Source: an uncultured Verrucomicrobiota bacterium (GTDB taxonomy: Bacteria > Verrucomicrobiota > Kiritimatiellia > JAAZAB01). Taken from it: 64,000 bases of DNA. Below, piece by piece: positions 44,283-61,188 of the stretch. Below the pieces are notes generated by a model. The model made no database searches and was not told where the DNA came from. It was given only the letters and a program-made list of their open reading frames with translations. Position numbers and translations under genes: made by a program. The number at the start of each line of letters is the position of its first letter. The stretch's first letter is position 1. The stretch covers positions 23,315 through 87,314 of the forward strand of contig CAZTWL010000006.1 in the NCBI GenBank assembly GCA_964617825.1, read 5' to 3'.

Positions 44283-44477
44283 GTGCAAGAACAAGAACGC
44301 TGGCTCTCGGTCGAGGAGATTGCCGTCCACCTAGGCGTCAATCGGGACACGATTTACAAGTGGATTGATCGGTGTCAGATGCCCGCCCACAAGCTCGGTA
44401 AGCTTTGGAAATTCAAGGCGACCGAGGTTGACGAGTGGATTCGAGAGGGCAAAGCAGGCGAAGGGGAACGCAAGTGA
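44283..44477 (+). CDS. small excisionase/AlpA-family HTH DNA-binding protein
   Basis: 64 aa. An LSVEEIAVHLGVNRDTIYKWI helix-turn-helix is present. This is the first gene of the lower-GC island. Confidence 0.6.
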   Translation: MQEQERWLSVEEIAVHLGVNRDTIYKWIDRCQMPAHKLGKLWKFKATEVDEWIREGKAGEGERK

Positions 44478-44511
44478 ACATGACCTCGATCATGGGAATG
44501 GGACGGACGTA

Positions 44512-47500
44512 ATGCCCCAGATATTCGACAACATCGAGAAGCACCTTCTGACGGCCCTCTCCGAAGCGATGGGACTCTCGAAGAGGTCTGATTTCTGCGT
44601 CGGCTACTTCAACCTTCGCGGATGGCGGCAGATTGATTCCTTCGTCGAGAAATGGCCTGGTGGGGACGGCAACTGTTGCCGGTTAATGGTCGGCATGCAG
44701 ACCCTTCCGGCCGAGGATCTCCACGCTGCCCTCAGTCTCGCCACAACACCAGCCCGCATGGACAACGCCACGGCGCTCCGTCTGAAGAAGGCGCTGGCGG
44801 AGGAGTTCCGTAACCAGCTCTGTATCGGCGCGCCTACCGAAGATGACGAACGTGGCCTCCGCCGATTGGCCGCCCAGATCAAAGCGCAGAAGGTCGTCGT
44901 CAAACTCTTCGTCAAGCACCCGCTGCATGCCAAGCTCTACCTCCTTTTTCGCCCAGACCCGATCAACCCCATCGTCAGTTATCTCGGCAGCAGCAATCTC
45001 ACCCTGGCGGGCCTGTCCAAACAGGGCGAGTTGAACGTGGACGTGCTCGACCATGATGCCACCCAGAAACTCGCAAGGTGGTTTGAAGACCGATGGAACG
45101 ATCACTGGTGCCTCGATATCTCGAAGGAGCTGGTCGAGATCATCGAAACGAGCTGGGCGCGAGAGACGCCCATCCCGCCGTATCACATCTACCTGAAGAT
45201 CGCCTATTGCCTCTCCCAAGAGGCCCGCGCTGGCCTCACCGAGTTCCGCATCCCCAAGGAGTTCGGGAACAAGCTCTTTGATTTCCAGAAAGCTGCGGTC
45301 AAGATCGCCGCTCATCATCTGAACAAGCGTCACGGCGTTATGATCGGCGACGTGGTCGGGCTGGGCAAGACCATCATGGCAACCGCCGTGGCCCGCATCT
45401 TCGAAGATGACCACGGTCTGGAGACCCTGATCATCTGCCCGAAGAACCTCGTTCGCATGTGGGAGGACTACAAGGAGCAGTACCGGCTGCATGCCAGGGT
45501 TCTCTCCATCACCCGGGCCATTGCCGAACTGCCCGAGTGTCGCCGTTACCGTCTCGTCGTGGTGGACGAGAGTCACAACCTCCGCAACCGCGAGGGCAAG
45601 CGCTACCACGCCATCCGCGACTACATAGAGAAGAACGAAAGCCGTGTTATCCTGCTGTCGGCCACGCCTTACAACAAGAGCTACCTCGACCTGGCCAGCC
45701 AACTCCGACTCTTCGTTGCCGAAGACCGTGACCTCGGCATCCGCCCGGAGCGCTTGCTTCAGGAAGTTGGCGAGACCGAGTTCATCCGACAGCACCAGTG
45801 CGCGGTCCGTTCGCTCGCTGCTTTCGAGCACAGCGAACACCCGGACGACTGGCGTGAACTCATGCGACTCTACCTTGTCCGTCGCACGCGCAGTTTCATT
45901 CAGGACAACTATGCGCAGTATGACCCCCAGCGGAAACAGAAGTTCCTGACCTTTGAAGACGGACGCCGTTCCTATTTCCCGACGCGCGTTCCCAAGACGC
46001 TCAAGTTCCGCGTGGACGAGTGCGACAAGAACGATCAGTACGGCCGCCTCTACTGCGAGGACGTGGTCAAGATCATAAACAAACTCGATCTGCCGCGCTA
46101 TGGTCTGGGTAACTACGTCGCGCCGTCGTCGGACAAGCCCCCATCACAACCCGAGGCCAAACAGATCGAGGACCTATCCCGCGCCGGCAAACGCCTCATG
46201 GGGTTCTGTCGGACGGGCCTTTTCAAGCGTCTGGAGAGTAGCGGTGCGGTCTTCCTGCAGTCCATCGAGCGCCATATCCTACGCAACTATGTCTACATAC
46301 ATGCCATCGAGAACGGTTTTCCGGTCCCCATCGGCACGCAGGATGTGGAAATGCTCGACTCGCGCGTGTACGACGAAGATGCCGACGACGTAAACGCCCG
46401 TCTCGATATTGAGGAGGACGCGACCGAGGAAGCGGCCAACGCCTGCCAGCAACCGCTGCGCACCCCAGAGCAATTCCGTGCCAAAGCCAAAGAGGTCTAT
46501 GAGTTCTACGACAAACACGCCAAGCGCCGCTTCAAGTGGCTGCGGTCCGGCCTGTTCATCGCCGAACTGCGTGATGACCTCGAAAACGATGCCAAAAGCC
46601 TGCTGAAAATTCTGAAGAGCGCCGGGCAGTGGGAACCAGCGGCCGACACAAAACTGCAGACCCTTGCCGCCACCCTCAAGAAGACGCACCCCGGCGACAA
46701 GGTTATAATCTTTACCCAGTTCGCCGACACCGCCCGCTACCTGGAGCGCCAACTTTCTGCCATGAGCGTGGACCGTATCGCGGGTGCGACCGGCGATTCC
46801 AGCGACCCGACCCTTATCGCCTGGCGGTTCAGCCCTGTGAGCAATGGCAAGTGCGCCAGTGTCGCTCCTCTCGATGAACTTCGCGTCCTCGTTGCTACCG
46901 ATGTCCTCAGCGAAGGCCAGAACCTCCAGGATTGTCACATCGTCGTCAACTACGACCTGCCCTGGGCCATCATTCGGCTCATTCAGCGTGCGGGCCGGGT
47001 GGACCGCATCGGTCAGGAGGCGGACACCATCGTCTGTTACTCGTTCCTGCCCGCAGAGGGCGTGGAGAAGATCATCCGCCTCCGCAGTCGGGTTCGCCAG
47101 CGGCTTCAACAGAACCAAGAGGTCGTCGGGGCTGACGAACTCTTCTTCGAAGACCAGCGCGACGAAGCCAAGGCACTCAACGATCTCTACACCGAGAAGG
47201 CCGGTATCCTTGACGGCGAGGCCGACAACGAAGTGGACCTTTCGTCCTACGCTTACCAAATATGGAAGAACGCCCTTGATGCCAATCCAGAACTGGAGAA
47301 GATCGTCCCCGAACTACCGCCGGTGGTGTACAGCTCGCGACCCTGGTCCCCAACTTCCGAAAAACCCGAGGGTGTCCTGGTCTACCTCAAGACAGCTGAC
47401 GGCAACGATGCCCTGGCCTGGATGAACAAAGCTGGTGAGAGCGTCACAGAATCCCAGTACGCTATCCTGCGCGCGGCCGAGTGCAAACCGGAAACGCCGC

Positions 47501-47895
47501 ACGTGTCCCGCCATGTTAACCATCATCAACTGGTGCAGGAGGGCGTCAAACTGATCGTGAAGGAGGAGCGCGCCATCGGCGGCCAGCTCGGGCGGCCATC
47601 CGGCGCGCGCTTCCGCACCTACGAACGCCTGAAAGCCCACGCCGAGGATATTGAGGGTACGCTCTTCGAGTCGACATTGCTGCACAAGGCCATAGAACAG
47701 ATCTACCGTTACCCGCTCCGCCAAACCGCCGTTGACACACTCAACCGTCAACTTCGGTCAGGCATCACCAACCAGGCGCTCGCCGATCTCGTCATGGCCC
47801 TGTACGAAGAAGACCGGCTTTGCATCGTCCATGAGAAGGAAGAAAGCCACGAGCCCCGTATCATCTGCTCTATGGGGTTGAGGGCAGGTGAGTAG
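44512..47895 (+). CDS. PLD-like (HKD) nuclease domain fused to SNF2-family helicase (DrmC+DrmD-like)
   Basis: About 1,128 aa from the ATG at 44512. Single HKD motif (HAKLYLL...GSSNLT). SNF2 motif I (GLGKT), motif II (DESH) and helicase-C (ATDVLSEGQNLQ, QRAGRVDRIGQ) are all present. Confidence 0.8.
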   Translation: MPQIFDNIEKHLLTALSEAMGLSKRSDFCVGYFNLRGWRQIDSFVEKWPGGDGNCCRLMVGMQTLPAEDLHAALSLATTPARMDNATALRLKKALAEEFRNQLCIGAPTEDDERGLRRLAAQIKAQKVVVKLFVKHPLHAKLYLLFRPDPINPIVSYLGSSNLTLAGLSKQGELNVDVLDHDATQKLARWFEDRWNDHWCLDISKELVEIIETSWARETPIPPYHIYLKIAYCLSQEARAGLTEFRIPKEFGNKLFDFQKAAVKIAAHHLNKRHGVMIGDVVGLGKTIMATAVARIFEDDHGLETLIICPKNLVRMWEDYKEQYRLHARVLSITRAIAELPECRRYRLVVVDESHNLRNREGKRYHAIRDYIEKNESRVILLSATPYNKSYLDLASQLRLFVAEDRDLGIRPERLLQEVGETEFIRQHQCAVRSLAAFEHSEHPDDWRELMRLYLVRRTRSFIQDNYAQYDPQRKQKFLTFEDGRRSYFPTRVPKTLKFRVDECDKNDQYGRLYCEDVVKIINKLDLPRYGLGNYVAPSSDKPPSQPEAKQIEDLSRAGKRLMGFCRTGLFKRLESSGAVFLQSIERHILRNYVYIHAIENGFPVPIGTQDVEMLDSRVYDEDADDVNARLDIEEDATEEAANACQQPLRTPEQFRAKAKEVYEFYDKHAKRRFKWLRSGLFIAELRDDLENDAKSLLKILKSAGQWEPAADTKLQTLAATLKKTHPGDKVIIFTQFADTARYLERQLSAMSVDRIAGATGDSSDPTLIAWRFSPVSNGKCASVAPLDELRVLVATDVLSEGQNLQDCHIVVNYDLPWAIIRLIQRAGRVDRIGQEADTIVCYSFLPAEGVEKIIRLRSRVRQRLQQNQEVVGADELFFEDQRDEAKALNDLYTEKAGILDGEADNEVDLSSYAYQIWKNALDANPELEKIVPELPPVVYSSRPWSPTSEKPEGVLVYLKTADGNDALAWMNKAGESVTESQYAILRAAECKPETPHVSRHVNHHQLVQEGVKLIVKEERAIGGQLGRPSGARFRTYERLKAHAEDIEGTLFESTLLHKAIEQIYRYPLRQTAVDTLNRQLRSGITNQALADLVMALYEEDRLCIVHEKEESHEPRIICSMGLRAGE

Positions 47896-47931
47896 TAATT
47901 AGACAATGCAGAAACAACAAGGAGGCTTCGT

Positions 47932-48270
47932 ATGGCGGAGAAATGGACGCAGGAATTACGAAGGATTGCTTTTGCGCGTTTAGCCATGGAGTTTGGCTCG
48001 CAATATTGGGATAAAAACAAGACAGAACTATCCTTCCCAAAACTTACGACTGAGGATGAGGTGTTGGAGCAGATTGCCCGGTACCTCACATGGTTCACTG
48101 GCGAGACGTTTACGGGCAAGAACGTCAACGCACAACTCGCATGGGCAAAGACTGAGCAAAAGCAGGTCATGAAGACCCAGACCAAACAGTTCGTCCTGTG
48201 CCAGGCGGCAGCCTATGAGGTTGGTTTGATTCGCAACCAACCCGCACGTGCGACGACTATTGGTGTATGA
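47932..48270 (+). CDS. hypothetical 112-aa protein between helicase and methyltransferase genes
   Basis: The ORF has a plausible RBS and sits inside the operon. No similarity recognised. Confidence 0.4.
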   Translation: MAEKWTQELRRIAFARLAMEFGSQYWDKNKTELSFPKLTTEDEVLEQIARYLTWFTGETFTGKNVNAQLAWAKTEQKQVMKTQTKQFVLCQAAAYEVGLIRNQPARATTIGV

Positions 48271-48312
48271 TGCTTTGGCAATATAAGCTTTCAGGATTTC
48301 TTCGAAATCGGA

Positions 48313-51300
48313 GTGGATACATTCATGAACAAAGCCACCGCCCGTGAACTCCTTCGCCAGTTTGACTTCAAAGCGCTCTTCCTCAACGAACTCGGCTGGG
48401 ACGATCACGACGGCTCGCTGCCCCTCAAGGTCGGCGAGGATACTGTCACATTGACCGCGGTCGCCGAGAAGCGCGGCATGGCGGCTTACCTTTGCGTCGT
48501 GCCCGGACAGAGGCGATCCTACGACTACCAGACGCGCTGCAAGATCGAAATCCAACTCGCCAAGAGCGTCCGCGAGCATCTGGTCATTTACGCCGATCCC
48601 AACCGTCGCTTCCAGACCTGGCAGTGGGTTAAACGTGAGCCCGGCAAACCTATCGCCCGCCGCGAGCACACGCTCACCGCCAACCAATCCGGTGAGGCTC
48701 TTCTCCAGAAAATTGAAGCCCTGGAGGTCAAGATCGAGGAAGAGGATCAACTCACTCTCGTCGGCATCACCGCGCGTGCACGCCAGGCATTCGACGTGGA
48801 CCGCGTCACCAAGCGCTTCTACGACCGCTTCAAGACCGAGCACGCCGCCTTCCTCAAACAGATTGAAGGCATTGGCGACGAAGACGAGTGCGAATGGTAC
48901 GCATCGATCATGCTCAATCGTCTCAAGTTTGTGTACTTCATTCAGAAGAAGGGTTTCCTCGACCAGGACAAGGACTACCTGCGCAACCGTCTTGCCATGG
49001 TCCAGAAGACCCGACCAAAGACGAAATTCCTCACTTTCTACCGAGCTTTTCTATTGAAGCTCTTCCACGACGGCCTCGGCCGCAAGGAACGCAGTCCCGA
49101 GCTGCACAAACTTCTCGGCACTGTGCCATATCTGAATGGCGGTATCTTTGCCGTCCACCCTCTGGAGGAGAAATACACCGGGATTGATATCCCGGACAAA
49201 GCCTTCGAAAAAGTTTTTGCTTTTTTTGACCAATACCGCTGGCATTTGGACGAGCGTCCCCTCCGTGCCGACGACGAGATCAACCCCGATGTTCTCGGCT
49301 ACATCTTCGAAAAGTACATCAACCAGAAGCAGATGGGGGCCTACTACACCAAGGAAGATATTACCGAGTACATCGCCAAGAACTGCATCGTTCCCTTCAT
49401 CCTCGACCGCGTCGAAACAGACCTCAAGAAGAAACCGGACGCCTTCCGCGCCCTTTTCCAACTGTTGGCCGCCGATCCTGACCGCTACATCTACGATCCC
49501 GTTAAACACGGCGTTGTGCTACCGCTACCGCCCGAGATCGAAAAGGGTGTGGATACGAAGAAGCCGAATCTTATGGAACGCCGCGCTGCCTGGAATAAAC
49601 CCGCCTCATCCGAGTATGCCCTTCCGACCGAGATCTGGCGTGAGGTCGTCGCCCGTCGTCAGCGCTGTGCCGAGTTGCGAACTCGCCTTTCCGCCATTAT
49701 GCCCGATGCCGCCCAATCATTCACAGCAAACGAACTGATCACCCTCAATCTGAACATTCGCCAGTTTGCCCAGGACTGCATCGAGAACGCCGCCACCCCG
49801 GACGTCCTCTGGGCGTTCTGGCAGGCCATCGAACAGATCACTGTCCTCGACCCCACCTGCGGATCAGGTGCATTTCTGTTTGCGGCTGTCAACGTGCTGG
49901 AACCGCTCTACGAAGCTTGCCTGGACCGTATGAAGGCGTTTATGCTCGAATGGCGCCAATCTATCAAGGCACCGTACCCCAACTTCTACAACAAATTCGA
50001 CGCCGTCATTGCGCGCGTCGAAAAACACGCCAACGAAAAGTATTTTATCTTCAAGTCCATTATCATTCGCAATCTCTACGGCGTCGACATCATGGATGAG
50101 GCTGTCGAGATCTGCAAACTACGTCTATTTCTTAAACTTGCTGCCCAGATCGAGCCTGATTATTCTCAAGAGAATCTTGGTATAGAGCCCCTGCCGGACA
50201 TTGATTTCAATGTCCGCGCTGGCAACACGCTAGTTGGCTTTGCCACGGAGAAACAAGCCGAGGAAGTCATCCGACAGGATCTGTTGGCCTACAACACCGT
50301 TTGGCCGGAGGTTCAGCGTGATGTCAAAGAGATCGCGGAGATGTTTGCCTTGTTTCGGCAGCAACAGACAGACCTGGGTGGTGCAGTATGCTCAGAAGAT
50401 AAAGCGCGTCTTCGCAAACGTATTACGCCTCTTGAGGCGCGACTCAATCAGTATCTAGCAGATGCTTACGACATCAACACGAAGGCTGCCGTCAAGGAGT
50501 GGGTTTCAAAGCACAAACCCTTCCACTGGTTTATCGAGTTTTATGCCATTATTTCGAGTGGTGGATTCTGTGTGGTCATAGGTAACCCTCCTTATGTGGA
50601 GTGCCATAAGAACACCAAAGGGACAATTGCCCTTGTGGATGAATACAAGACGCACGATACCGCGAACCTATATCCGTTTATAGTGGAGCGTTCCACGCAT
50701 CTCGTGCGGCCCCGCGGCAGTCTCGGTGTCATTCTACCCCTCAGCGCATTCTGTACTCAGAGAATGGAACCTCTCGTTTCGCTCATCGTCGAACTTCCTG
50801 GTGACAAGTGGATCTCCCACTTCGGGTGGCGACCGGCTACACTCTTTAGTGGTGTTAACATCCCCCTGTCAATTATACTCTGCTTACCGCACTCAGGTTC
50901 ACGGCTGTATACCACGACCTTCCAAAAATGGTACCAAGAAGCCCGTGATTACTTATTTTCACTGATCCAATACGCCGACACCGAAGGATTTGTTCAGAAC
51001 AAATACGTCATCCCTAAGATCGGCAACTCTACGGAACAGTCCATTCTTCGCAAGGCCTTCTCGCAAGGTAAGACTGTTGCCGCTTACCTCGCCGGTGGGA
51101 AACAAGGCGCGACATTATACTACCGGAATACAGGTGGGCTCTATTGGCGGATCATCACCGACTTCCAACCATTGTTTGAACTAGATCACACGAGAATGGC
51201 CTCAAGCACGGAGTCAACACTCATCCTCCGCGATACCAAAGCCCTTAGTGCAATAACCGCGGTCCTTAATACCAACTTCTTCTGGCTCTACTACGTAGTC

Positions 51301-51639
51301 TATTCCTCGTTCCACCACGTAAATCCTATCGACATTCTCACCGTACCGATCGATCTTGAAAGCGTTTCGCCAGATCTGTTGAAGAAGCTCTGTGACTGTG
51401 AGCGGAGACTCATGGATGACCTTAAGGCCAAAAGTCAGATACGACTCCGCTGCCACAAGGGTGGCAACGAGAGCAGTGCCCAGACGTTCTTCCCCTCCAG
51501 ATCCAAACCACTCGTCGACGCCACGGACATCGTCGTGGCTATGCACTATGGGTTTTCCCCGCACGAACTAGACTACATTCTCAACTACGACATCAAATAC
51601 AGGACGGTAGGCACGGCCGACGAGGAGGAAGACGAATGA
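48313..51639 (+). CDS. large N6-adenine DNA methyltransferase (Eco57I/DrmMI/PglX-like, gamma-class)
   Basis: 1,108 aa. SAM motif I (VLDPTCGSGAFL) and catalytic NPPY (VIGNPPYV) are present, with long N- and C-terminal extensions. Confidence 0.8.
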   Translation: MDTFMNKATARELLRQFDFKALFLNELGWDDHDGSLPLKVGEDTVTLTAVAEKRGMAAYLCVVPGQRRSYDYQTRCKIEIQLAKSVREHLVIYADPNRRFQTWQWVKREPGKPIARREHTLTANQSGEALLQKIEALEVKIEEEDQLTLVGITARARQAFDVDRVTKRFYDRFKTEHAAFLKQIEGIGDEDECEWYASIMLNRLKFVYFIQKKGFLDQDKDYLRNRLAMVQKTRPKTKFLTFYRAFLLKLFHDGLGRKERSPELHKLLGTVPYLNGGIFAVHPLEEKYTGIDIPDKAFEKVFAFFDQYRWHLDERPLRADDEINPDVLGYIFEKYINQKQMGAYYTKEDITEYIAKNCIVPFILDRVETDLKKKPDAFRALFQLLAADPDRYIYDPVKHGVVLPLPPEIEKGVDTKKPNLMERRAAWNKPASSEYALPTEIWREVVARRQRCAELRTRLSAIMPDAAQSFTANELITLNLNIRQFAQDCIENAATPDVLWAFWQAIEQITVLDPTCGSGAFLFAAVNVLEPLYEACLDRMKAFMLEWRQSIKAPYPNFYNKFDAVIARVEKHANEKYFIFKSIIIRNLYGVDIMDEAVEICKLRLFLKLAAQIEPDYSQENLGIEPLPDIDFNVRAGNTLVGFATEKQAEEVIRQDLLAYNTVWPEVQRDVKEIAEMFALFRQQQTDLGGAVCSEDKARLRKRITPLEARLNQYLADAYDINTKAAVKEWVSKHKPFHWFIEFYAIISSGGFCVVIGNPPYVECHKNTKGTIALVDEYKTHDTANLYPFIVERSTHLVRPRGSLGVILPLSAFCTQRMEPLVSLIVELPGDKWISHFGWRPATLFSGVNIPLSIILCLPHSGSRLYTTTFQKWYQEARDYLFSLIQYADTEGFVQNKYVIPKIGNSTEQSILRKAFSQGKTVAAYLAGGKQGATLYYRNTGGLYWRIITDFQPLFELDHTRMASSTESTLILRDTKALSAITAVLNTNFFWLYYVVYSSFHHVNPIDILTVPIDLESVSPDLLKKLCDCERRLMDDLKAKSQIRLRCHKGGNESSAQTFFPSRSKPLVDATDIVVAMHYGFSPHELDYILNYDIKYRTVGTADEEEDE

Positions 51640-52412
51640 AAAAGGCACTGTGGAAAGCACTTGCAGCGGTTACTGCGAAGAAGAAGACAAACTACACCGA
51701 ATCAGAACTGATTCTCCCAGCCTTGAGGCTCTTGGCTGGTCGCACTACCCCCGTTACGACATCCGACTTGATCGCCCAACTGGAGGCCGATCTTCGTCCC
51801 AAAGGTCACGACGCAGAACTGATCCAAGGCCGCAATGACACCTACTTTAGTCAGAAGGTACGGAACCTCAAGTCACACGATTCATTGAAGCGCCTGAGAC
51901 TCGCGAAACACCATGCAGGGAAGTGGCAGATTACAGAAAGCGGTAGGGACTTCCTTGCAAACAGCACATTGCATGTTGAAAGCATGCTGAATCAAGGCTT
52001 TAGACCCCGGTGCCTGAGCAGACGTGATCAGTTTGACTACTCCAAGCTTGTCATAGAGGAGGGAGCAAGCATTCCTACTTTAGGTCAGGCACGCAAGAGA
52101 AGCGACAGATTGAAGGCTATCGCCATTTCATCTTTCAAAAGAGACAACAAAGGGCGCGTATTCTGCACCGTGTGCGACTTTGACTTCGCCCGCAAGTACG
52201 GTTCTCACGGACGAGGCTTCATCGAAGTACATCATCTGGATCCCATCTTTGAGAAAGATGTGCGGGGAGAAAAGGTTCAACTGCTAAAGGCTCTGACCAG
52301 AGTCACACTTGTCTGCTCTAATTGTCATCGTATGATTCACCGCCGCAAAGGACACATGCTTGGGATAACAGCATTGAAGAAGCTTGTCTTGGCGCATAAG
52401 TGCAAGTCGTAG
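51636..52412 (+). CDS. HNH endonuclease with N-terminal winged-helix-like domain
   Basis: The C-terminal CxxC...HH...CxxCH HNH motif (CTVCDF...EVHHLDPI...CSNCHRMIH) is present. The start codon overlaps the MTase stop (ATGA). Confidence 0.75.
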   Translation: MKKALWKALAAVTAKKKTNYTESELILPALRLLAGRTTPVTTSDLIAQLEADLRPKGHDAELIQGRNDTYFSQKVRNLKSHDSLKRLRLAKHHAGKWQITESGRDFLANSTLHVESMLNQGFRPRCLSRRDQFDYSKLVIEEGASIPTLGQARKRSDRLKAIAISSFKRDNKGRVFCTVCDFDFARKYGSHGRGFIEVHHLDPIFEKDVRGEKVQLLKALTRVTLVCSNCHRMIHRRKGHMLGITALKKLVLAHKCKS

Positions 52413-52461
52413 CCGAACGCAGGTATCCTCACTGAAAATAGGAAAGCGGACTAGCCAACGC

Positions 52462-53058
52462 ATGAAGACACTGCGCACAGCCGGGAACTATATCCTTCTC
52501 AACCGTCCCAAGATCGCCCTGTACTGTTCCGCCAAGTGCCCGGGCAAACTGATCCTGGACACTTACGACCTCGCCAAGCAGTGCCGGGAAAAGGGTGTCA
52601 CGGTCATTAGCGGCTTTCATTCCCCGATGGAGGAGGAGTGCCTCCGTATCTTGCTCCGCTCGACGCATCCGGTAATCTGGTGCCTTGCCCGCAGCATGCT
52701 TAAACGCATTCCCACAAAGCCCGTTGATTGCCGCGCCGCAGTCGCCGAAGGTCGCCTCTTGATCGTATCACCATTTAAAGATACCGTTCGCCATATCACG
52801 GCCAAAACCGCTATGGCCCGTAACCGATTCGTCGCTGAAAAGGCATCTGCTGTTGTTGTCGCCCACGCTGCCCCCGGCAGCAAGATCGAAGCCCTCAGCC
52901 TGGAACTACTTGCCGTTGGCAAGCCTCTCTACACCTTTGACCACCCCGCCAATGCAGTCCTTCTCACTCAAGGCGCAAGAGATATACGTCAACTTAACCT
53001 CGCGGAATTTGCATACATGAGAGGTAAGGTGACCTGCTCCCCAAAAACTGATCCATGA
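52462..53058 (+). CDS. DprA/Smf-like (SLOG superfamily) Rossmann-fold protein
   Basis: The ALYCSAKCPGKLILDTYDLAKQCREKGVTVISGFHSPMEEECLRILL pattern parallels the DprA Rossmann core (xxGSR...vvSGlArGiD..ah). The six-frame ORF starts at 52384. Confidence 0.45.
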   Translation: MKTLRTAGNYILLNRPKIALYCSAKCPGKLILDTYDLAKQCREKGVTVISGFHSPMEEECLRILLRSTHPVIWCLARSMLKRIPTKPVDCRAAVAEGRLLIVSPFKDTVRHITAKTAMARNRFVAEKASAVVVAHAAPGSKIEALSLELLAVGKPLYTFDHPANAVLLTQGARDIRQLNLAEFAYMRGKVTCSPKTDP

Positions 53059-53294
53059 CAGAAGAGAGTCCTCCGGTACCGCGTTGTCAAAGATCGGGAG
53101 CCGTGGTTTCAGATCATAATGAGCCAGAAGTTCGAGTTTGACGAAAAGACCGCAGCGGATCTGGCCCGTCGGGTTCCGCTACCAGAAGCCCTGGCCCGGT
53201 CGCTTGTCTTTGACCTTCGGCGATTTTGGTAGCGGTCAGGTCTTAAGCCGGGATTTCAATGGGGACACTCGGCAGGGCATAAGCCTGCCATAGC

Positions 53295-54758
53295 CTAACT
53301 ATTCAAGTCAGAGGCCGTTTTCAACCTGCGCAAAATATCAATCAATCCCCCGGTGTCCTGCCCGCAATACTTTAACAGTTGTTTCCGCACCTTCTGCCTT
53401 TCCTGTTGGGGCACGTCGCCGAACGTCACCCGCATGAATTCATCGGCGGCAACGGAACCGCCGGCAATTTCCATGTTGGCATAAGATCGGTCCGTTATGG
53501 CTGGCATTACCCGCTTTAGTGAATTGCTGCCATACTGATTAGGATGATGATAGTCCGCTTTTCTAAAGGGCGCAATCAAATCCTTAATGCGTGGCAGAGC
53601 CCGGTTGATCCACGGGCGATGTTCAGGAAACGCCTGGGCCATTTGATCCAGCATGGATTTCTCGAATGCCATATTAAACGCCAAGATGGTGGCGGAATTG
53701 CCAATATGCTGCTTCAAGTTCGACAGCAATGCCGGCCGGGGATCGTGCCTGCCTTCCGCTAGAAATTCATGATGGACCGGTTGCGCTTTAAGTCCCGATA
53801 GGATGTGCAGCGAATACTGGAAGGGGATCTGCTGAAAAGGCTTGGTGCCGTCGTAGAGGGGGATTGCCGTATTGAATGACTCAAAATCCAGAAACCGGAT
53901 CGGATATTCAAGATCAGCCAGGAACTCCCTGATTGCTTCGGGATTAATATGCGGCTTGCGGGTCTTCACGCATTTGATCTGGATGCGCTGGTAAAGGCTT
54001 AATGTTGTGTTGGCGGGAATATCCCGGATATGAAGAATGCCTTTTTCCATAAATTCAAAGGCCCTGGCGCCGATCCGGTGTAAGTCAAAAACGTTATGTT
54101 TAGGGAGAAAGGCCCAGCATTGATCCTGGAACGGGCAGGCATAAGGCGAACTACAATGCGGGCCGACACGAATGTTAGGACATTTGGTATCCAGAGCCTT
54201 GATCATGACCGCAACCGATTTGGGCACGTCGCGAATCAACTCAGATACCTCCTTGGATATCAGGTTTACGTTGAATAGTTTGCTAACCTTGATCGGTCCA
54301 TTCTTGACATAATCACTGTTTATTGTGGCAATCCGACATTGACGGACAGGCAGGCCGGATTTGTCGCAAACGTATTTCTGAAACGCAACGTCCTGATAAT
54401 AGCAGTCTTTTATTTTTGCCGATGATTTGACCTCCACTATATCCCATCCACCCCGGACTGGTGCCAGGATGTCGATCTGGGCATACAGGTTGCCCGAGCC
54501 AATCGCCGCCTCATAAATGGGCTTCCGTTGAGTTAATGCGGCCTGGGTAGCTTTGATCCGGTCCGATATGCTCGATGTCGTATCAATCGCTATGCCGTCG
54601 GGGAATAGATTGCGGGCGCATAGGCCGACTTCCTGGCCGGCCATAAGGATTTTCTGGCGGGCAGCATCATAGACTATCAGCTCGGGCCGATGGATCCGAT
54701 TCCACAGGTATTTGAGACACTGTAATCCGGCCATGTAGCTGCTTTTGGATATATGCAT
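53295..54758 (-). CDS. DUF2779-like protein with N-terminal PD-(D/E)xK (Cas4/RecB-like) nuclease motif
   Basis: The N-terminus MHISKSSYMAGLQCLKYLW, a DIVEVKSS motif and conserved Cys residues match DUF2779. Confidence 0.5.
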   Translation of the reverse strand: MHISKSSYMAGLQCLKYLWNRIHRPELIVYDAARQKILMAGQEVGLCARNLFPDGIAIDTTSSISDRIKATQAALTQRKPIYEAAIGSGNLYAQIDILAPVRGGWDIVEVKSSAKIKDCYYQDVAFQKYVCDKSGLPVRQCRIATINSDYVKNGPIKVSKLFNVNLISKEVSELIRDVPKSVAVMIKALDTKCPNIRVGPHCSSPYACPFQDQCWAFLPKHNVFDLHRIGARAFEFMEKGILHIRDIPANTTLSLYQRIQIKCVKTRKPHINPEAIREFLADLEYPIRFLDFESFNTAIPLYDGTKPFQQIPFQYSLHILSGLKAQPVHHEFLAEGRHDPRPALLSNLKQHIGNSATILAFNMAFEKSMLDQMAQAFPEHRPWINRALPRIKDLIAPFRKADYHHPNQYGSNSLKRVMPAITDRSYANMEIAGGSVAADEFMRVTFGDVPQQERQKVRKQLLKYCGQDTGGLIDILRRLKTASDLNS

Positions 54759-54891
54759 ATCAGGATTCCTTTATGCTTTTAGCATGGTGTTACCTCCGAT
54801 TCAATTACAGCTTAACGGAGTTGATCTGTCTTCTTCAGAATACGAAGATTTTATCCGGATATCCTCCTGGCCTTGATTATTATTTCTTAAA

Positions 54892-55434
54892 CTACAAGCA
54901 TCCATTTATAACCCTGAGAATAACCCATCGCTCTTGCATGTCATCCCAGTAATGCAGGCTGAAACGCAACGCCGGATATTGCTTTGAGACCTGTTGTAAC
55001 CATGGATATGGCGGACTCCACGGCGTTTTGAATTTATAAAATAACCGACGCTTGGATTCGCGAACAAGCTTGGATTCAGACGTGTCCCATTTGCAACCCC
55101 AATGCTTTATGCACCAGGGAATAATCGGATCCTCATAATCATTGTCGCCCACTTTAACGTATGGCTTTTTGGTAACCGCCAAGGGAACCGGCACCAATCG
55201 GTCAAAACTCAGGTCAACGACCACAGGCTTGGATCCCTTTCTCCCAGACTGATGATTGTCATCTCTTTCTTTTATTTGGTAAAAAGAATTGCTTGTCCAA
55301 GCCGCCTTGGTTGTTTTGAGACGATTATAATTTGTTTTTGCAGAGAAATATGAATCCCTGTTTTGGGCCCTAAACGTTGCAATATCTTGTGCAGGCCCAA
55401 CAATATATAATTTATTACGCACCCAGTTTGGCAT
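54892..55434 (-). CDS. hypothetical protein (possibly DUF1281/Api92-like)
   Basis: Likely start MPNWVRNKLYIVGP. Trp/Pro-rich. Low-GC. Confidence 0.3.
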   Translation of the reverse strand: MPNWVRNKLYIVGPAQDIATFRAQNRDSYFSAKTNYNRLKTTKAAWTSNSFYQIKERDDNHQSGRKGSKPVVVDLSFDRLVPVPLAVTKKPYVKVGDNDYEDPIIPWCIKHWGCKWDTSESKLVRESKRRLFYKFKTPWSPPYPWLQQVSKQYPALRFSLHYWDDMQERWVILRVINGCL

Positions 55435-55438
55435 GATG

Positions 55439-55801
55439 TTATTCATCCTGCTTTTCATCTTCGATCCTTGCAACAGGCACGTCGACAATCGTTATTGTGT
55501 CGGTGCCAAAAGTGGACAGAATCGGGACGAACATCGGCGCTACACGCCATTCTTCTATAACAGGGTCGGCAGCCTGGATCATTGCACGCACCTGCATGCG
55601 CTTGAGCAGCCACCTGCTATGGCACCTGGCACATTCAATCACTTTCCCGACAGCCTCCGATGCCGTATCAGCCTCCTCGCAATTAGAAACCTGGTATTCC
55701 TGATTGCTGGGGCATTGCTTGCATCCTATGGCTATGACCACGATGTTACCGCTCAGTTCTTCCTGCTCTTCCTTTGCCGGTTGCAGCCTGTTCGTTTGCA
55801 T
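55439..55801 (-). CDS. small Cys-rich (zinc-ribbon-like) hypothetical protein
   Basis: CxxC...CxxCH pattern (CKQCP, CARCHS). Likely start MQTNRLQP. Confidence 0.3.
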   Translation of the reverse strand: MQTNRLQPAKEEQEELSGNIVVIAIGCKQCPSNQEYQVSNCEEADTASEAVGKVIECARCHSRWLLKRMQVRAMIQAADPVIEEWRVAPMFVPILSTFGTDTITIVDVPVARIEDEKQDE

Positions 55802-55891
55802 AATACCTCCCCTCATTTATTGGTTTTATTTTCGGTTAATTCATGCTTACATCGCCGAATAATGAGTATTTCTTTTTTTCTGCGGCCAATG

Positions 55892-55924
55892 TAGCATGGG
55901 ACATAGGACAAACATCGTCCTAAG
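55892..55924. promoter_or_regulatory. conserved 33-bp motif TAGCATGGGACATAGGACAAACATCGTCCTAAG containing palindrome GGAC-N7-GTCC; second copy at 57774-57806
   Basis: Seen directly. Copy 1 lies in the divergent promoter of the WYL regulator gene. Copy 2 lies between the Sel1 gene and the 57891 gene. The copies are 29/33 identical. Confidence 0.5.
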
Positions 55925-55948: not shown

Positions 55949-56929
55949 ATGTCGGATCCCAAGTTCAAACCCCAGTTTCGAAGACTTCAATTCATCGATG
56001 AGCAGATCCGGGCGGGTAAATACCCCAATTGCTTCCAGATGGGCAAAGAGCAGGAGGTCAGCTATAAGACCATCCAGCGGGATATTGATTACATGAAATA
56101 TGAGCTGGGGGCGCCCATTGAATACGACAAGGTCAAACGCGGCTTCCGTTACACCGATAACACCTGGTTTCTTAAATCTGTTCTACTGTCAGAAGGTGAG
56201 CTTTTTGCCATGCTGGTGGGCTCCCAGGCCATGACGATGTACCGGGGTATGCCGGTAGCCAAGGAGCTGGAGGCGATATTCGGTAAGTTGGCGGCCTGTC
56301 TGCCAGATAAATTGACCGTTTCGCCCGAGCTGATCTATTCACGGTTCACGTTCAGTGGGCCGCCGGCCAAGGTAATCCGCGAGGATGTCTGGAAAGGGGT
56401 AGTGCGGGGCTTGATGAACCAGCGCGAACTGGAAATACGCTATCAATCACTCCACGCGCAACAGCCCAAAACGCATGCAGTCCAGCCCTGCCACCTGGCC
56501 AATCTGGATGGTGAATGGTATTTGTTCGCCTATGACCCCAAGCACAAGGAAATTGTCCAGTATTCCGTCGGACGGATTGAATCGGTCACGGTGAGCGAAC
56601 GCACGTTCACGCTTCCGGCAACCGTCAACATGGGAAAGTTGCTGGCCGATCGTTTTGGCCGGTTTATACACAGCGAGAAATATAAGCCGATTGTCGTCCG
56701 GCTGCTTTTTGATGCGAAGCTGGCCGCCTATATTTCGGAAAAGACCTGGCATCCCGGGCAAACACTCAAGCCCCGGCGCGGAGGCGCGGTAGAATTATGC
56801 CTGCCGGTGCCGGCTGTCCGGGACGTGAGGCCCTGGATTATGAGTTTTGGTTCGAAGGTCAAGGTCCTGGCGCCGAAATCACTGGCCGAAGCGATCAGGC
56901 AGGAACATTATCAGGCTGCAAAGGTATAA
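55949..56929 (+). CDS. WYL-domain transcriptional regulator (BrxR/CapW-like: N-terminal wHTH + WYL + C-terminal domain)
   Basis: A literal WYL motif (DGEWYLFAYDP) is present with an N-terminal HTH. The 326-aa length is typical of BrxR-family regulators in defence islands. Confidence 0.7.
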   Translation: MSDPKFKPQFRRLQFIDEQIRAGKYPNCFQMGKEQEVSYKTIQRDIDYMKYELGAPIEYDKVKRGFRYTDNTWFLKSVLLSEGELFAMLVGSQAMTMYRGMPVAKELEAIFGKLAACLPDKLTVSPELIYSRFTFSGPPAKVIREDVWKGVVRGLMNQRELEIRYQSLHAQQPKTHAVQPCHLANLDGEWYLFAYDPKHKEIVQYSVGRIESVTVSERTFTLPATVNMGKLLADRFGRFIHSEKYKPIVVRLLFDAKLAAYISEKTWHPGQTLKPRRGGAVELCLPVPAVRDVRPWIMSFGSKVKVLAPKSLAEAIRQEHYQAAKV

Positions 56930-57017: not shown

Positions 57018-57659
57018 CTATATCCTGAAGTATCCCGTCGCCGTTCGCATAACATAACCCAGGATTATTTTGCACTCCTGCATCTCCCTGCTTGGCCACC
57101 ACGCTATGGCCTTGGTTAAATCCTTGGGCACACCATTGCCGTTCGCATAAGATAAACCAAGATTAATTTGAGCCTCTGCAACACCCTGCTCGGCTGCTTT
57201 CTGCCACCACTCTGTTGCCTTGGTTAAATCCTTGGGCACGCCTTCGCCATCTAAATAACATACCCCAAGATTAAATTGAGCATCTGCATCTCCCTGATCG
57301 GCGGCCTTCTGATACAATTCTACGGCCTTGGTTATATCCTTTGAAACGCTAGTACCGTTTTCATAAAAGACTCCAAGGCAACATTGAGCCGCTGCATTTC
57401 CCTGATCCGCTGCTTTCTGAAACCATTCTGCTGCCTTGGTTAAATCCTCGGGTACACCTTCGCCCTTCGCATAACATAGACCAAGATTAAATTGAGCGTC
57501 TGCATCTCCCTGACCGGCGGCCTTCTGATACAATTCTACGGCCTTGGCTATATCCTTGGAAACGCCATTGCCGTTTTCATAACATACCCCAAGATTAAAG
57601 CGGGCAGCTGCATCTCCCTGATCGGCTGATTCGGCTAATTTGTTGAGATTTTTACGCAT
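57018..57659 (-). CDS. Sel1-like repeat (TPR-like) protein
   Basis: Six repeats of A(Q/A)xNLGxCYxxGxGVxKDxxKAxEWxQKAA. Confidence 0.75.
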   Translation of the reverse strand: MRKNLNKLAESADQGDAAARFNLGVCYENGNGVSKDIAKAVELYQKAAGQGDADAQFNLGLCYAKGEGVPEDLTKAAEWFQKAADQGNAAAQCCLGVFYENGTSVSKDITKAVELYQKAADQGDADAQFNLGVCYLDGEGVPKDLTKATEWWQKAAEQGVAEAQINLGLSYANGNGVPKDLTKAIAWWPSREMQECKIILGYVMRTATGYFRI

Positions 57660-57773: not shown

Positions 57774-57806
57774 TAGCATGGGGCATAGGACAAACAGCGT
57801 CCCAAG
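57774..57806. promoter_or_regulatory. second copy of GGAC-N7-GTCC-containing motif (TAGCATGGGGCATAGGACAAACAGCGTCCCAAG)
   Basis: See 55892-55924. Confidence 0.5.
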
Positions 57807-57890: not shown

Positions 57891-58457
57891 ATGATCGACA
57901 GCGAAACAGCCAAAGTTATAGCCCGACTGTTAAGCGAGAGACTGGTTCAGCTTGGCAAGGAGGGCAAACAATGGGCTCCTGATCCATTTGAACCCAAGCC
58001 AGCCGTGACGCTTCGGAAAGGGATTGATATGCTGGAGGACGCGCTGAACAATCTGATTCAGTCAACAAGCGCAATTGAAAGGGAGTGCAATAAAAGCCTG
58101 AATAATATGCCGTGTGAATCAACAGGTATGGCCGATATGTCCGCCATCGAAGAGGCCGTGGCCAGAATCTTGGCGCATGTTCGGGCCATCTATCGCGTCG
58201 AGTTTCGTCTCGCCCAGGTAACGCCGCCACGGCTTCTGGAAAACTGTTTTCGTCTATTTCAGGGGATCGGACACCGGTTCGCCGGCAAACTAAACAATGC
58301 GGCCCTTGACATTAACCAAAAAGCAGAAGGTCCTTTTAAAACCGGCGTAATCTATACAACATACACCTTAGGCTTTGAACCAAACGAGGAGCAACTCGTT
58401 GCCGAATTCAACCGCGTTAGGGATGTTATTCGGGAGGTTGGGCAGCTGAAGCGCTAG
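57891..58457 (+). CDS. hypothetical protein
   Basis: 188-aa ORF downstream of the conserved motif. No domain recognised. Confidence 0.4.
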   Translation: MIDSETAKVIARLLSERLVQLGKEGKQWAPDPFEPKPAVTLRKGIDMLEDALNNLIQSTSAIERECNKSLNNMPCESTGMADMSAIEEAVARILAHVRAIYRVEFRLAQVTPPRLLENCFRLFQGIGHRFAGKLNNAALDINQKAEGPFKTGVIYTTYTLGFEPNEEQLVAEFNRVRDVIREVGQLKR

Positions 58458-59664: not shown

Positions 59665-60234
59665 TCATTTATACTGGTTGGCAATTTCTTTTGCTTTATT
59701 CACCATATCGTCTTTCGTAACATTTTTGGCCCTTACATAGAAAGACGACACAACCTTGCCGCCTTTTTGCGTTACCTTTTCGGTCATGGTTTTTATGGCC
59801 TTGTCGGGACTACCCCCTCCCAAGGTGACAAAAACAACAACTGACTTGCCTTTGAAGTCTACCTGTTCAATAAACGCATTGAACTCCGGCGTGGGCATGC
59901 TGAACCAGACCGGGCAACCCACAAAAATACGGTCGTAACCGGATAAATCCTTGTTGAAAGGCTTTACCGGCCAGGATTTCCCCTTTATTGATGCCTCTCT
60001 TCCGGCGCCATAGGCCATCTCTTTTGACGGCTTGGTGACATCTTCCAATTTGATTACATCGGCTTTAATCATTTCTGCCAGGGTTTTTGAGACCAGCTCT
60101 GTATTCCCGGACCAGGAATAATATACGATGAGATTTTTCATCGTTGCCTGGTTTTCTTCAGCCTTGGCAGCCATCACGGTAAATAAGCCAATCATAACTG
60201 TCAGCATGACCAATCCGATAATCAGTTTCTTCAT
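59665..60234 (-). CDS. flavodoxin-like protein with signal peptide
   Basis: Likely start MKKLIIGLVMLTVMIG. The LIVYYSWSGNTE flavodoxin phosphate-binding loop is present. GC is about 45%. Confidence 0.55.
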   Translation of the reverse strand: MKKLIIGLVMLTVMIGLFTVMAAKAEENQATMKNLIVYYSWSGNTELVSKTLAEMIKADVIKLEDVTKPSKEMAYGAGREASIKGKSWPVKPFNKDLSGYDRIFVGCPVWFSMPTPEFNAFIEQVDFKGKSVVVFVTLGGGSPDKAIKTMTEKVTQKGGKVVSSFYVRAKNVTKDDMVNKAKEIANQYK

Positions 60235-60298
60235 TTGTTGCCCTTTCATTGTATGTTTCCGAATGTCTTTCGTGTGGTTTCCGGTTGGCAGCATTATT

Positions 60299-60487
60299 TT
60301 ACAACTTTCTTTGGCCTTTAACATGAATTTTAATATTTCGTCGTTTGAATGTCGGACTGTCCAGGTTCTTGTTTTCCGCCACTGTTTCTTCCACATCCTT
60401 GACCCCGAACAATGCCTTTGTCCTGATTAAAGTCTTCAATTCTTCCATCTCACGTTCCAGCTTTGTCAGGCGTTCTTCAATCGTCAT
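60299..60487 (-). CDS. possible small coiled-coil protein
   Basis: 62-aa ORF (MTIEERLTKLEREMEELK...). The only support is the ORF itself. Confidence 0.2.
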   Translation of the reverse strand: MTIEERLTKLEREMEELKTLIRTKALFGVKDVEETVAENKNLDSPTFKRRNIKIHVKGQRKL

Positions 60488-60537
60488 GGCAGTTCCTATT
60501 GTTCCGGCAAGCGCTATCGCCTCAAATCTATTTTCAT

Positions 60538-61188
60538 CTAATCCTGCTTTCTGACAAGCCTTACGCCCATTTCATAAGCTTTTTGACAATCCTTTGGAAA
60601 TATCTCTTTCTTCCTTTTCAACTTCTCGCCAAGATTAAACCGGGACGCAACATACTTCGAATAATCATCAAACTGATAGGTGTCAAAACACAAGAGCCTT
60701 TCGCTTGGTCCAAAGATTCTTGCGAGAAAGCGTTCCGTATTTGCGAAACGCTGCTCATAACCGAATTCTTTCATCAGCCTTTCGGGAAGACCCATGGTAT
60801 AAATAAACCCGGTAGATATTTTCTTGGGAAAAAGAGTCTCGGGAGGATCAGTATATGTCAGGTATGGGAAAACTAACCGCTCGATAAATGACTGCATCTC
60901 CCCGGTAATGCTTCCTAAATATATAGGCGAGCCGAAGATAATGGCATCGGACTCCTCAACTCTCTTAAAGATGGGCTTAAGAGCGTCTTTTATTGCACAT
61001 TTGCCATAGCTCTTGCCGCCTTTTTCCTTGCAGGCAAAACAACTGATGCAGCCTTGATATTTCAAATCATATAGATGGATAAGCTCTGTTGTTGCGCCTT
61101 GCGATGATGCACCTTCGAGGGCTTTTTTAAGCAGGGTTGCCGTGTTCCATTCTTTTCTCGGACTGCCGTTAAATGCGATAATATTCAT
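60538..61188 (-). CDS. flavodoxin-family NADPH-dependent FMN reductase-like protein with CxxC pair
   Basis: The MNIIAFNGSPRKEWNT start and SPIYLGSITG match the flavodoxin-like fold (NADPH-dep FMN reductase). A CISCFAC motif is present. Confidence 0.6.
   Translation of the reverse strand: MNIIAFNGSPRKEWNTATLLKKALEGASSQGATTELIHLYDLKYQGCISCFACKEKGGKSYGKCAIKDALKPIFKRVEESDAIIFGSPIYLGSITGEMQSFIERLVFPYLTYTDPPETLFPKKISTGFIYTMGLPERLMKEFGYEQRFANTERFLARIFGPSERLLCFDTYQFDDYSKYVASRFNLGEKLKRKKEIFPKDCQKAYEMGVRLVRKQD

Follow-up and report, generated by a model that had tools for sequence, protein, structure and literature searches.

The 64,000-nt stretch of Verrucomicrobiota DNA analysed here (the window; all coordinates are window positions, and L-numbers denote retrieved related and distant loci) contains, at positions 53295–55816, a block of three open reading frames (ORFs) that are co-oriented on the minus strand. 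The block encodes a predicted zinc-ribbon protein, a small protein related to YubB/Api92 and a nuclease of the DUF2779 family, and is adjacent to a divergent gene for a regulator with WYL and WCX domains. It is tentatively interpreted as the window version of a mosaic operon that is controlled by this regulator and resides in a defence island. The features of the region are the following.

53295..54758, minus strand: DUF2779 gene (ORF1), 487 aa, Pfam PF11074, the last gene of the operon
54759..54891, minus strand: gap between ORF2 and the DUF2779 gene, 133 nt, with the scar of an ankyrin gene, a conserved ribosome-binding region and an upstream ORF (uORF)
54892..55434, minus strand: YubB/Api92 (DUF1281)-like gene (ORF2), 180 aa
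55439..55801, minus strand: zinc-ribbon gene (ORF3), 120 aa, CxxC...CxxC, the first operon gene in the window
55904..55922, minus strand: operator 1, an inverted repeat between the WYL gene and the operon
55949..56929, plus strand: WYL + WCX regulator gene, 326 aa, divergent from the operon
57018..57659, minus strand: Sel1-repeat gene, Pfam Sel1 1.3e-62, probable start at the ATG at 57659 as judged from the translation and the ribosome-binding site
57784..57804, minus strand: operator 2, a duplicate WYL operator/promoter in front of the Sel1 gene

In all three block genes, the substitutions relative to the nearest homologues fall mainly at codon position 3, so that all three are genuine coding genes. 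The initial annotation of this DNA, which was made from the sequence alone, is thus borne out with respect to the position and strand of the three genes, and so are its domain calls (DUF2779-like PD-(D/E)xK nuclease, DUF1281-like protein and Cys-rich zinc ribbon); the block is also convergent, as was claimed, relative to a plus-strand operon that ends at 53058. The most likely start of ORF3 is the ATG at 55801 (MQTNRL..., 120 aa), the same as in the database protein P0129, and that of ORF2, judged from the sequence and from database proteins, lies at 55434 (MPNW..., 180 aa), with the ORF3 stop only 4 nt before it, a spacing that supports an operon. The block has a GC content of 0.485 compared with the window mean of 0.570, and only 2.8% of the same-size windows have a lower value. 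The claim that this is the lowest-GC part of the window holds at the scale of the block, given that the lowest same-size window begins at 53501 and overlaps it, but not at the 1-kb scale, where the minimum (0.427) is at 60001–61000, outside the block. The latter dip covers two flavodoxin/FMN-reductase-like genes (59665..60396 and 60538..61188, both on the minus strand). The window contains no tRNA gene, no integrase gene is located beside the block, and the flanking genes are chromosomal.

The WYL gene and the operon are transcribed away from each other from a common control region, which carries a conserved inverted repeat. Operator 1 reads TAGGACG-ATGTT-TGTCCTA, with arms of about 7–8 bp and a 5-bp spacer; the general form is TAGGAC(G/A)-N5-TGTCCTA followed by the conserved TGCTACATT, an element that resembles an extended -10 sequence. 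The window, L001, L005, L006 and L009 all have this divergent region in conserved form, and in L009 the 8-bp arms are perfect, with the 5-bp spacer. The 19-nt core GGACNNTGTTTGTCCTATG occurs once each in L001, L002, L005, L006, L007 and L009–L011, that is, in 8 of the 94 fetched loci, all of which carry the WYL gene, and in none of the other 86; the more divergent L012 is the only WYL-carrying locus of the close clade that lacks it. In the window, the motif is found twice against 0.01 expected occurrences. A scan of metagenomic contigs with the motif specified at 21 bases recovers nine loci (seven of them new), all with an orthologue of the WYL gene and with cargo drawn from a common gene pool, and there is no occurrence among 2.9 million viral contigs. 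Because the block shares this conserved divergent operator with the WYL gene, it is not independent of that gene, which contradicts the initial suggestion of an independent module. Scans for sigma-70 promoters and terminators perform no better than on shuffled sequence, and the 133-nt gap contains no terminator-like site.

The second operator (exact motif match at 57784–57802) is embedded in an approximately 95-nt duplicate of the control region that, in an alignment including L001, reaches a relic of the WYL start codon. The Sel1 protein encoded downstream is 56–68% identical to the products of Sel1 genes located inside the operons of L001, L002 and L005, so that, with the gene inside the operon in the relatives and behind its own operator here, the window regulon appears to be rearranged and to have two promoters. 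The Sel1 gene thus belongs to the same pool and is putatively driven in the window by its own operator copy.

The regulator matches the Pfam WYL (1.3e-14) and WCX (1e-14) models and the PADLOC WYL model (9.8e-29, over residues 27–312); its architecture is putatively HTH-WYL-WCX, with no match to a helix-turn-helix (HTH) model. Its orthologues occupy the same position in L001, L005 and L006 with 75–86% identity, and the range across the close clade is 49–86%. The regulators of the BrxR/CapW type likewise combine WYL and WCX domains, and the window regulator similarly heads a variable, defence-type region (PMC9122601). BrxR binds inverted repeats of 10–11 bp with a 5-bp spacer, and in pEFER two R-boxes are present in one island (PMC9122601); the window shares the 5-bp spacer and the two copies in a single island, like R-BOX1 and R-BOX2, but differs in the shorter arms (7–8 bp), in the location of the operator between divergent genes, with the controlled genes running away from the regulator, and in the cargo, which is neither BREX nor CBASS nor any catalogued system. 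Among the solved WYL proteins, the similarity is weak, with PafBC being the best relative (1.1e-6); a search of the PDB sequences yields no BrxR match at E<=0.01, and membership in the BrxR subfamily is not demonstrable by sequence.

About a dozen related metagenomic loci share this regulator and operator, the closest named relatives being metagenome-assembled genomes of Kiritimatiellota and Omnitrophota. In the close clade, defined as the contigs with the nearest relatives of the window DUF2779 protein (54–83% identity), a recurring frame is apparent in which the WYL gene points one way and the operon the other, the latter usually ending with a gene for an ankyrin protein of about 130 aa (Pfam Ank_2, 3e-32) followed by DUF2779; in L001, L005 and L006, the ankyrin gene ends about 25 nt before DUF2779. 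Between the operator and this end lie varying subsets of a pool that comprises YubB-like, Sel1, zinc-ribbon, zinc-ribbon-tetratricopeptide repeat (TPR), trypsin-like protease, ankyrin and resolvase-like nuclease genes. The order of genes after the operator is as follows.

L005 and L103: YubB-like, Sel1, zinc ribbon, Trypsin_2, ankyrin, DUF2779
L001: YubB-like, Sel1, ankyrin, DUF2779 (without zinc ribbon and protease)
L006: zinc ribbon, zinc-ribbon-TPR, ankyrin, DUF2779
L013: Sel1, zinc ribbon, Trypsin_2, ankyrin, two Endonuc_Holl genes, DUF2779
L101: Trypsin_2, ankyrin, DUF2779
L095: Trypsin_2, ankyrin, no DUF2779 (L095:1977-3103)
L097: Sel1, then a deletion scar joining the ankyrin N-terminus to the DUF2779 C-terminus (L097:2576-2790)
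L009 and L096: Sel1, zinc-ribbon-TPR, a 260-aa protein, with DUF2779 four genes off, beyond the WYL gene

L095 and L097 appear to be natural loss variants. The genes beyond the WYL-to-DUF2779 stretch have no homologues common between the loci, and such unrelated flanks indicate that the stretch travels as a unit while its contents are shuffled gene by gene. This mosaicism suggests that one switch governs functions that can each be dispensed with, and speaks against an obligate complex. When compared with PADLOC, only the ankyrin protein (repeats similar to those of PDC-M72A) and the protease (an LmuA-like domain) of the pool give matches, both partial; the trypsin-like member resembles LmuA and the effector domains of reverse transcriptase (RT)-protease systems.

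In the window, the order is zinc ribbon, YubB-like, ankyrin scar and DUF2779. The gap at 54759–54891 aligns with the ankyrin-to-DUF2779 junction, including the 3' end of the ankyrin gene, of L001, L005 and L006, which implies that the window has lost its ankyrin gene. A uORF of four codons (MLKA, then stop; 54785..54771) occupies the ancestral DUF2779 start codon at 54785 and, because a stop follows three codons after that start, translation of DUF2779 must begin at 54758.

These comparisons bear on the suggestion, made in the initial annotation, that the nuclease and its small partner proteins form a defence or abortive-infection module, that is, a fixed three-gene system with DUF2779 as the effector and two dedicated partners. 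The co-orientation of the genes, the tight spacing of ORF3 and ORF2, and the location of the block in a defence island are all compatible with such a system. The trio, however, is seen in the window alone and in no other retrieved locus; ORF2 and ORF3 have no homologues in any of the 80 distant DUF2779 loci and are optional in the close clade, where the upstream genes are interchangeable, ORF3 is paired with a protease or a TPR protein and not with ORF2, and the usual neighbour of DUF2779 is the ankyrin gene that the window has lost. Gene-neighbourhood conservation, put forward as a check of the module, therefore speaks against it, and the analysis provides no evidence of abortive infection. 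The fixed trio is largely refuted by the comparative data and is now a very improbable explanation, so that the idea of a self-contained three-gene system is corrected to that of a mosaic operon.

DUF2779, the usual last member of the operon, is a two-domain protein. The window protein matches Pfam DUF2779 (PF11074) over practically the full model (positions 2–126 of 126; E=6.8e-39, 133.4 bits against a cut-off of 23.3). In an alignment of 23 sequences with 42–75% identity, the invariant residues of the N-terminal half are C14, D96, E109-x-K111, Q127 and C202/C208/C214, which together make up a predicted Cas4/RecB-type PD-(D/E)xK site with a four-Cys iron-sulphur (Fe-S) signature. The Pfam model Cas_Cas4 (PF01930) matches 10 of the 23 aligned sequences, and the window protein itself has no match to it at E<=0.05. 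In the C-terminal half, D291-x-E293, E366 and Y464-x3-D468 are invariant and compose a predicted DEDDy 3'-5' exonuclease site; E366, in the ExoII motif, is a Glu where Asp is usual, and the ExoI–III motifs agree with the published description. The protein thus retains every catalytic residue of both a Cas4-like Fe-S nuclease and a DEDDy exonuclease. The profile search against the PDB sequences yields just one marginal match, to the exonuclease region of a polymerase.

The initial annotation considered the DUF2779 proteins to be functionally uncharacterised, which does not apply to their architecture: the fusion of a Cas4-like (DUF83) and a DEDD domain has been described as family F.17 of the RNase H-like proteins (PMC3985635) and for the quasi-essential protein MMSYN1_0389 of JCVI-syn3.0 (PMC13621843). 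A role in defence is plausible but unproven. The window protein shares with these the two-domain architecture, the full-length Pfam match and the catalytic residues. It differs from MMSYN1_0389 in keeping all four Fe-S cysteines, compared with two (PMC13621843), and in being accessory and island-borne, not quasi-essential; it scores below the cut-off of the UU173 subfamily (NCBIfam NF045869; 46.6 bits vs 225) and is not a member.

DUF2779 is a large family, with more than 3,500 matches among the 8,000 candidates scored, and is scattered in its distribution. The best 80 loci from 185,579 species genomes (the distant set; neighbour counts use 78 loci) come from Chloroflexota, Verrucomicrobiota, Omnitrophota, Actinomycetota, DPANN archaea and Methanosarcinales, with 40–47% identity, and this spread of low-identity homologues over phyla and archaea points to horizontal transfer. 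The immediate neighbours in these loci are a mixture of housekeeping-type and defence-type genes. The search for a conserved partner of DUF2779 was negative, given that no neighbour family is present in more than 8 of the 78 loci. A WYL gene lies within 1.3 kb of DUF2779 in three of them (L015, L033 and L038), and these three are all the WYL genes in 961 kb of distant-locus flanks. In L015 (8496–11458), the WYL gene, a 151-aa gene and DUF2779 are co-directional; L033 (9986–13725) and L038 (9977–13320) also contain SNF2 helicases related to PDC-M27C/DrmD and Mrr-like nucleases.

Among mobile elements, DUF2779 is detected in 31 of 72,556 plasmids and in 8 loci of IMG/VR. A search of 50,697 phage records yields none, so that DUF2779 is almost missing from phages. 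The homologues recur among restriction-modification (R-M), PLD/helicase and toxin-antitoxin (TA) genes, and both observations are consistent with the initial proposal of a defence-related role. In 4 of the 16 plasmid neighbourhoods, a WYL gene is located at most 5 kb from DUF2779, and in 3 it is directly adjacent. On the Rhodoferax antarcticus plasmid NZ_CP019242 (L106:3848-13491), the genes for an IetA-like ATPase, DUF2779, WYL, PDC-M27A (605 bits in PADLOC), PDC-M27B (805 bits) and a DEAD/DEAH helicase follow one another in one direction, an order that attaches the DUF2779 gene to the PADLOC candidate system PDC-M27. Other plasmid neighbours are PD-(D/E)xK nucleases, PLD proteins, DEAD/SNF2 helicases, large AAA ATPases, dGTPase, type I R-M, NERD, HipA and Fic/Doc. 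Taken together, the close-clade and plasmid copies of DUF2779 are repeatedly found among R-M, PLD/helicase, dGTPase, TA and recombinase genes.

The block in the window resides in a defence island, as the initial annotation held. The genes on its far side from the regulator are the following.

44365..47895, plus strand: PLD-SNF2 helicase, PADLOC 'HKD+Snf2', 1176 aa
48313..51639, plus strand: type IIG R-M methyltransferase/endonuclease, PADLOC REase_MTase_IIG with 1015 bits, 1108 aa
51636..52412, plus strand: Mrr_N-HNH protein, 258 aa, with the start overlapping the preceding stop
52384..53058, plus strand: DprA/PsyrA-like SLOG-type protein, 224 aa

The type IIG R-M, HKD+Snf2, HNH and PsyrA-like genes all lie at most 12 kb from the WYL regulator. 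They form a four-gene plus-strand operon (44365–53058), an unusual combination of R-M and helicase genes. Among the related loci, L009 is surrounded by an integrase gene and a type IIG R-M system, L012 by a WYL-X-PLD-SNF2 operon, and L006 by SNF2/PLD, resolvase and rve integrase genes. Also in L012 (1–7560), beside DUF2779, there are genes for Aminotran_5, PAPS_reduct, a 1127-aa protein and DUF4007, a set that resembles those for phosphorothioation of the Ssp/Dnd type.

On this evidence, the block is taken to be the window version of a WYL-controlled mosaic operon in a defence island, specifically, an inducible nuclease operon that restricts invading DNA; this reading is offered tentatively, its chances being put a little below even. 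A dimer of the WYL protein would occupy the operator, by analogy with BrxR, CapW, PafBC and DriD. PafBC and DriD respond to single-stranded DNA (ssDNA), and binding of such a nucleic-acid signal, which would arise upon phage infection or DNA damage, by the WYL domain would alter transcription. The operon would then supply DUF2779, a two-headed exonuclease for free DNA ends, with the Cas4-like domain acting in the 5'-3' direction and the DEDDy domain in the 3'-5' direction, such that the ends would be resected or degraded in both polarities. The zinc-ribbon, YubB-like, Sel1, ankyrin, TPR and protease proteins would be interchangeable accessory, specificity, sensing or regulatory factors, each of them dispensable, as opposed to obligate subunits. 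Overall, the operon would most probably contribute to the island by inducible restriction of invading DNA.

Several observations weigh against this interpretation. None of the block genes matches a PADLOC model at E<=0.01 (PADLOC-DB 2.0), NCBIfam and PHROGs provide no functional assignment, so that the profile searches envisaged in the initial annotation lend the defence assignment no support, and no member of these families has a published defence assay. There is no WYL gene in 75 of the 78 distant DUF2779 loci, and the neighbours in the distant loci include ABC-2 transporters, HD/YfbR nucleotidases and permeases, that is, housekeeping-type genes. The quasi-essential status of a distant DUF2779 member in Mollicutes (PMC13621843) suggests that at least part of the family has a housekeeping role in nucleic-acid metabolism. 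DUF2779 in the window is preceded by the 133-nt gap instead of the usual ~25 nt, so that co-transcription at this junction is putative. The WYL protein may be a repressor or an activator, and a nucleic acid is its putative ligand. Finally, phages, jumbo phages and giant viruses are the characteristic carriers of the wider ORF2 family, and an origin from a mobile element suits the gene no less well than a role in host defence.

One alternative is a repair function. The operon could belong to a DNA-damage response in which a WYL regulator of the PafBC/DriD type senses ssDNA and induces DUF2779 and its helpers to mend the host chromosome, possibly at breaks made by the neighbouring restriction systems, with no attack on invaders. 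PafBC is the best solved relative of the regulator; an ATP-dependent DNA ligase gene is found beside the WYL gene in L012 and at the end of L001, which also carries a gene resembling those for uracil-DNA glycosylase (UDG), and L013 has its two Endonuc_Holl genes. RmuC, SbcC-like and 'double-strand break repair' ATPases are encoded near plasmid copies of DUF2779. The DEDD half of the quasi-essential JCVI-syn3.0 protein is closest to the repair nuclease MrfB (PMC13621843). However, the distribution of DUF2779 is patchy and driven by horizontal transfer, with presence or absence varying even among close relatives (L095 and L097); the gene is found inside R-M/PLD-helicase islands and beside recombinases; and repair systems do not usually include a trypsin-like protease or proteins with ankyrin, Sel1 or TPR repeats. 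A repair operon is therefore considered unlikely, albeit with a substantial residual chance.

The other alternative emerges from the properties of ORF2. Of the Pfam models, ORF2 matches DUF1281_C above the gathering score (E=5.5e-8), and an invariant KHWGCxWD motif is present in the protein. Its place in the YubB/Api92 family rests on the C-terminal ferredoxin-like domain (PF18406) and on the fold similarity to PDB entry 2ijr. Compared with Api92 (2ijr, 281 aa), ORF2 is short at 180 aa and the Pfam match is to DUF1281_C only; the N-terminal half has no match to a Pfam domain model at E<=0.01, the middle third is predicted to be disordered or has no model, and residues 26–115 are unmodelled. 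No plasmid homologue is detected by tblastn, the search of the PDB sequences is empty, and the literature on YubB and Api92 contains nothing on function that could be found. The viral affinity of the family is manifest in 33 IMG/VR loci, matches to 'YubB' in BFVD and a match to PHROG 12644. DUF1281 also adjoins an antirestriction gene on a segment of pPATH that resembles an integrative and conjugative element (ICE; PMC10425158).

Accordingly, the block might be the cargo of a mobile element directed against host or rival defences, with the YubB-like, ankyrin, Sel1 and TPR proteins acting as protein-binding inhibitors, alongside a nuclease, under the element's own WYL switch. Apart from the viral family of ORF2 and the pPATH neighbourhood, this is favoured by the movement of the WYL-to-DUF2779 stretch between unrelated flanks, by the recombinase genes adjacent to it in L006 and on an A. 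butzleri plasmid, and by the composition of L001, most of which consists of small ORFs without a Pfam match. Conversely, the operator is missing from all 2.9 million viral contigs, DUF2779 is unmatched in the phage records and the zinc ribbon is not found in viral contigs, the window block is flanked by chromosomal genes with neither integrase nor tRNA, and the searched libraries contain no known anti-defence family to which a pool protein has a match. On balance, the mobile-cargo explanation is improbable.

The zinc-ribbon protein contains five cysteines, among which C27xxC30 and C57xxC60 are kept in all true homologues (each Cys at least 90% conserved). Its family is tiny, with 14 representatives at E<=1e-3 among 1.84 billion proteins. 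ORF3 has no match in Pfam or PADLOC, and no homologue in viral contigs; the sole match among the PDB sequences, to a designed Kelch protein, arises from repeats and is spurious. The AlphaFold2 (AF2) model has a mean pLDDT of 40, too poor for use, and the zinc-ribbon reading rests on the two CxxC knuckles. A domain of the ORF3 type constitutes the N-terminus of TPR proteins of 407–412 aa (L006:4332-5570, L009:16969-18192 and L096:71-1309), which are encoded beside the same WYL regulator; the ORF3-type zinc ribbon is possibly an adaptor domain. The free zinc-ribbon gene overlaps the start of the trypsin-like protease gene in L005, L013 and L103. An apparent similarity over 33 aa between the Sel1 N-termini and the zinc-ribbon proteins was rejected because the cysteines do not align.

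The recurrence of the WYL gene next to DUF2779 in distant loci and plasmids admits a bolder extension. WYL and DUF2779 might be a functional pair that recurs across phyla, in which the exonuclease creates or, more attractively, clears the ssDNA sensed by the WYL protein, yielding a self-resetting inducible switch; on top of this pair, the window lineage would have built a modular system, new to the literature, in which a zinc-ribbon domain specific to the lineage, on its own or as a TPR fusion, would connect the switch to exchangeable effectors or sensors (trypsin-like protease, YubB-like, Sel1 and ankyrin proteins). This scheme is speculative and improbable. The link between WYL and DUF2779 across phyla and the operator open a direct experimental route to a large nuclease family.

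Comparison with known systems delineates what is new. The accessory nucleases of the solo-Cas4 and Cas4 families, such as ACE1 with long-A prokaryotic Argonautes (pAgo), similarly place a Cas4-family nuclease outside CRISPR and among defence genes (PMC12094033). The predicted pairing of 5'-3' Cas4-type and 3'-5' DEDD-type activities parallels the Cas2-DEDDh or Cas4 plus DEDDh combinations of CRISPR adaptation, as for the trimming of DNA ends. The differences are that there is no Argonaute, Cas1/Cas2 or CRISPR array near the block and that the two nucleases are fused in the window protein. As for PDC-M27 (components A, PLD-like B and SNF2-like C, preceded by WYL), DUF2779 is located directly upstream of the WYL-PDC-M27A/B-helicase genes on the Rhodoferax plasmid, L012 and L006 place DUF2779 by X-PLD-SNF2 operons, and the HKD+Snf2 gene of the window is in the same island as the block, but the window has no homologue of PDC-M27A or B, and the link is one of association only. 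The possibility that the X-PLD-SNF2 operons of L012 and L006 are PDC-M27 orthologues was rejected: they show no detectable sequence similarity to the Rhodoferax genes, and the architecture alone is common.

The literature searched contains no description of the cargo, the operator or the mosaic gene pool. What is new, then, is a WYL-controlled defence-island module with undescribed cargo, operator and gene pool, whereas the DUF2779 architecture was already known. As a conserved end-gene of WYL operons and a neighbour of WYL, PLD-helicase and R-M genes, DUF2779 becomes the subject of a testable hypothesis, namely that it serves defence islands as an inducible DNA exonuclease of dual polarity. 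The operator motif offers a handle for experiments and for finding more cargo of the regulon, and the mosaic pool supplies a short list of genes that may have new functions in defence or counter-defence, in lineages that have been little studied.

Three minor features of the window adjoin the operon and its second operator. An ORF of 188 aa (57891–58457, plus strand) diverges from operator copy 2; searches of Pfam, PADLOC, NCBIfam and PHROGs leave it unmatched, and none of the related loci has a homologue. Where the DprA-like gene and DUF2779 converge, the gap between them contains a candidate ORF of 36 aa (MSQKFEFDEKTAADLARRVPLPEALARSLVFDLRRFW; approximately 53121–53231, plus strand), and a stem-loop with a 6-bp stem, GGCAGG...CCTGCC, directly follows the DUF2779 stop.

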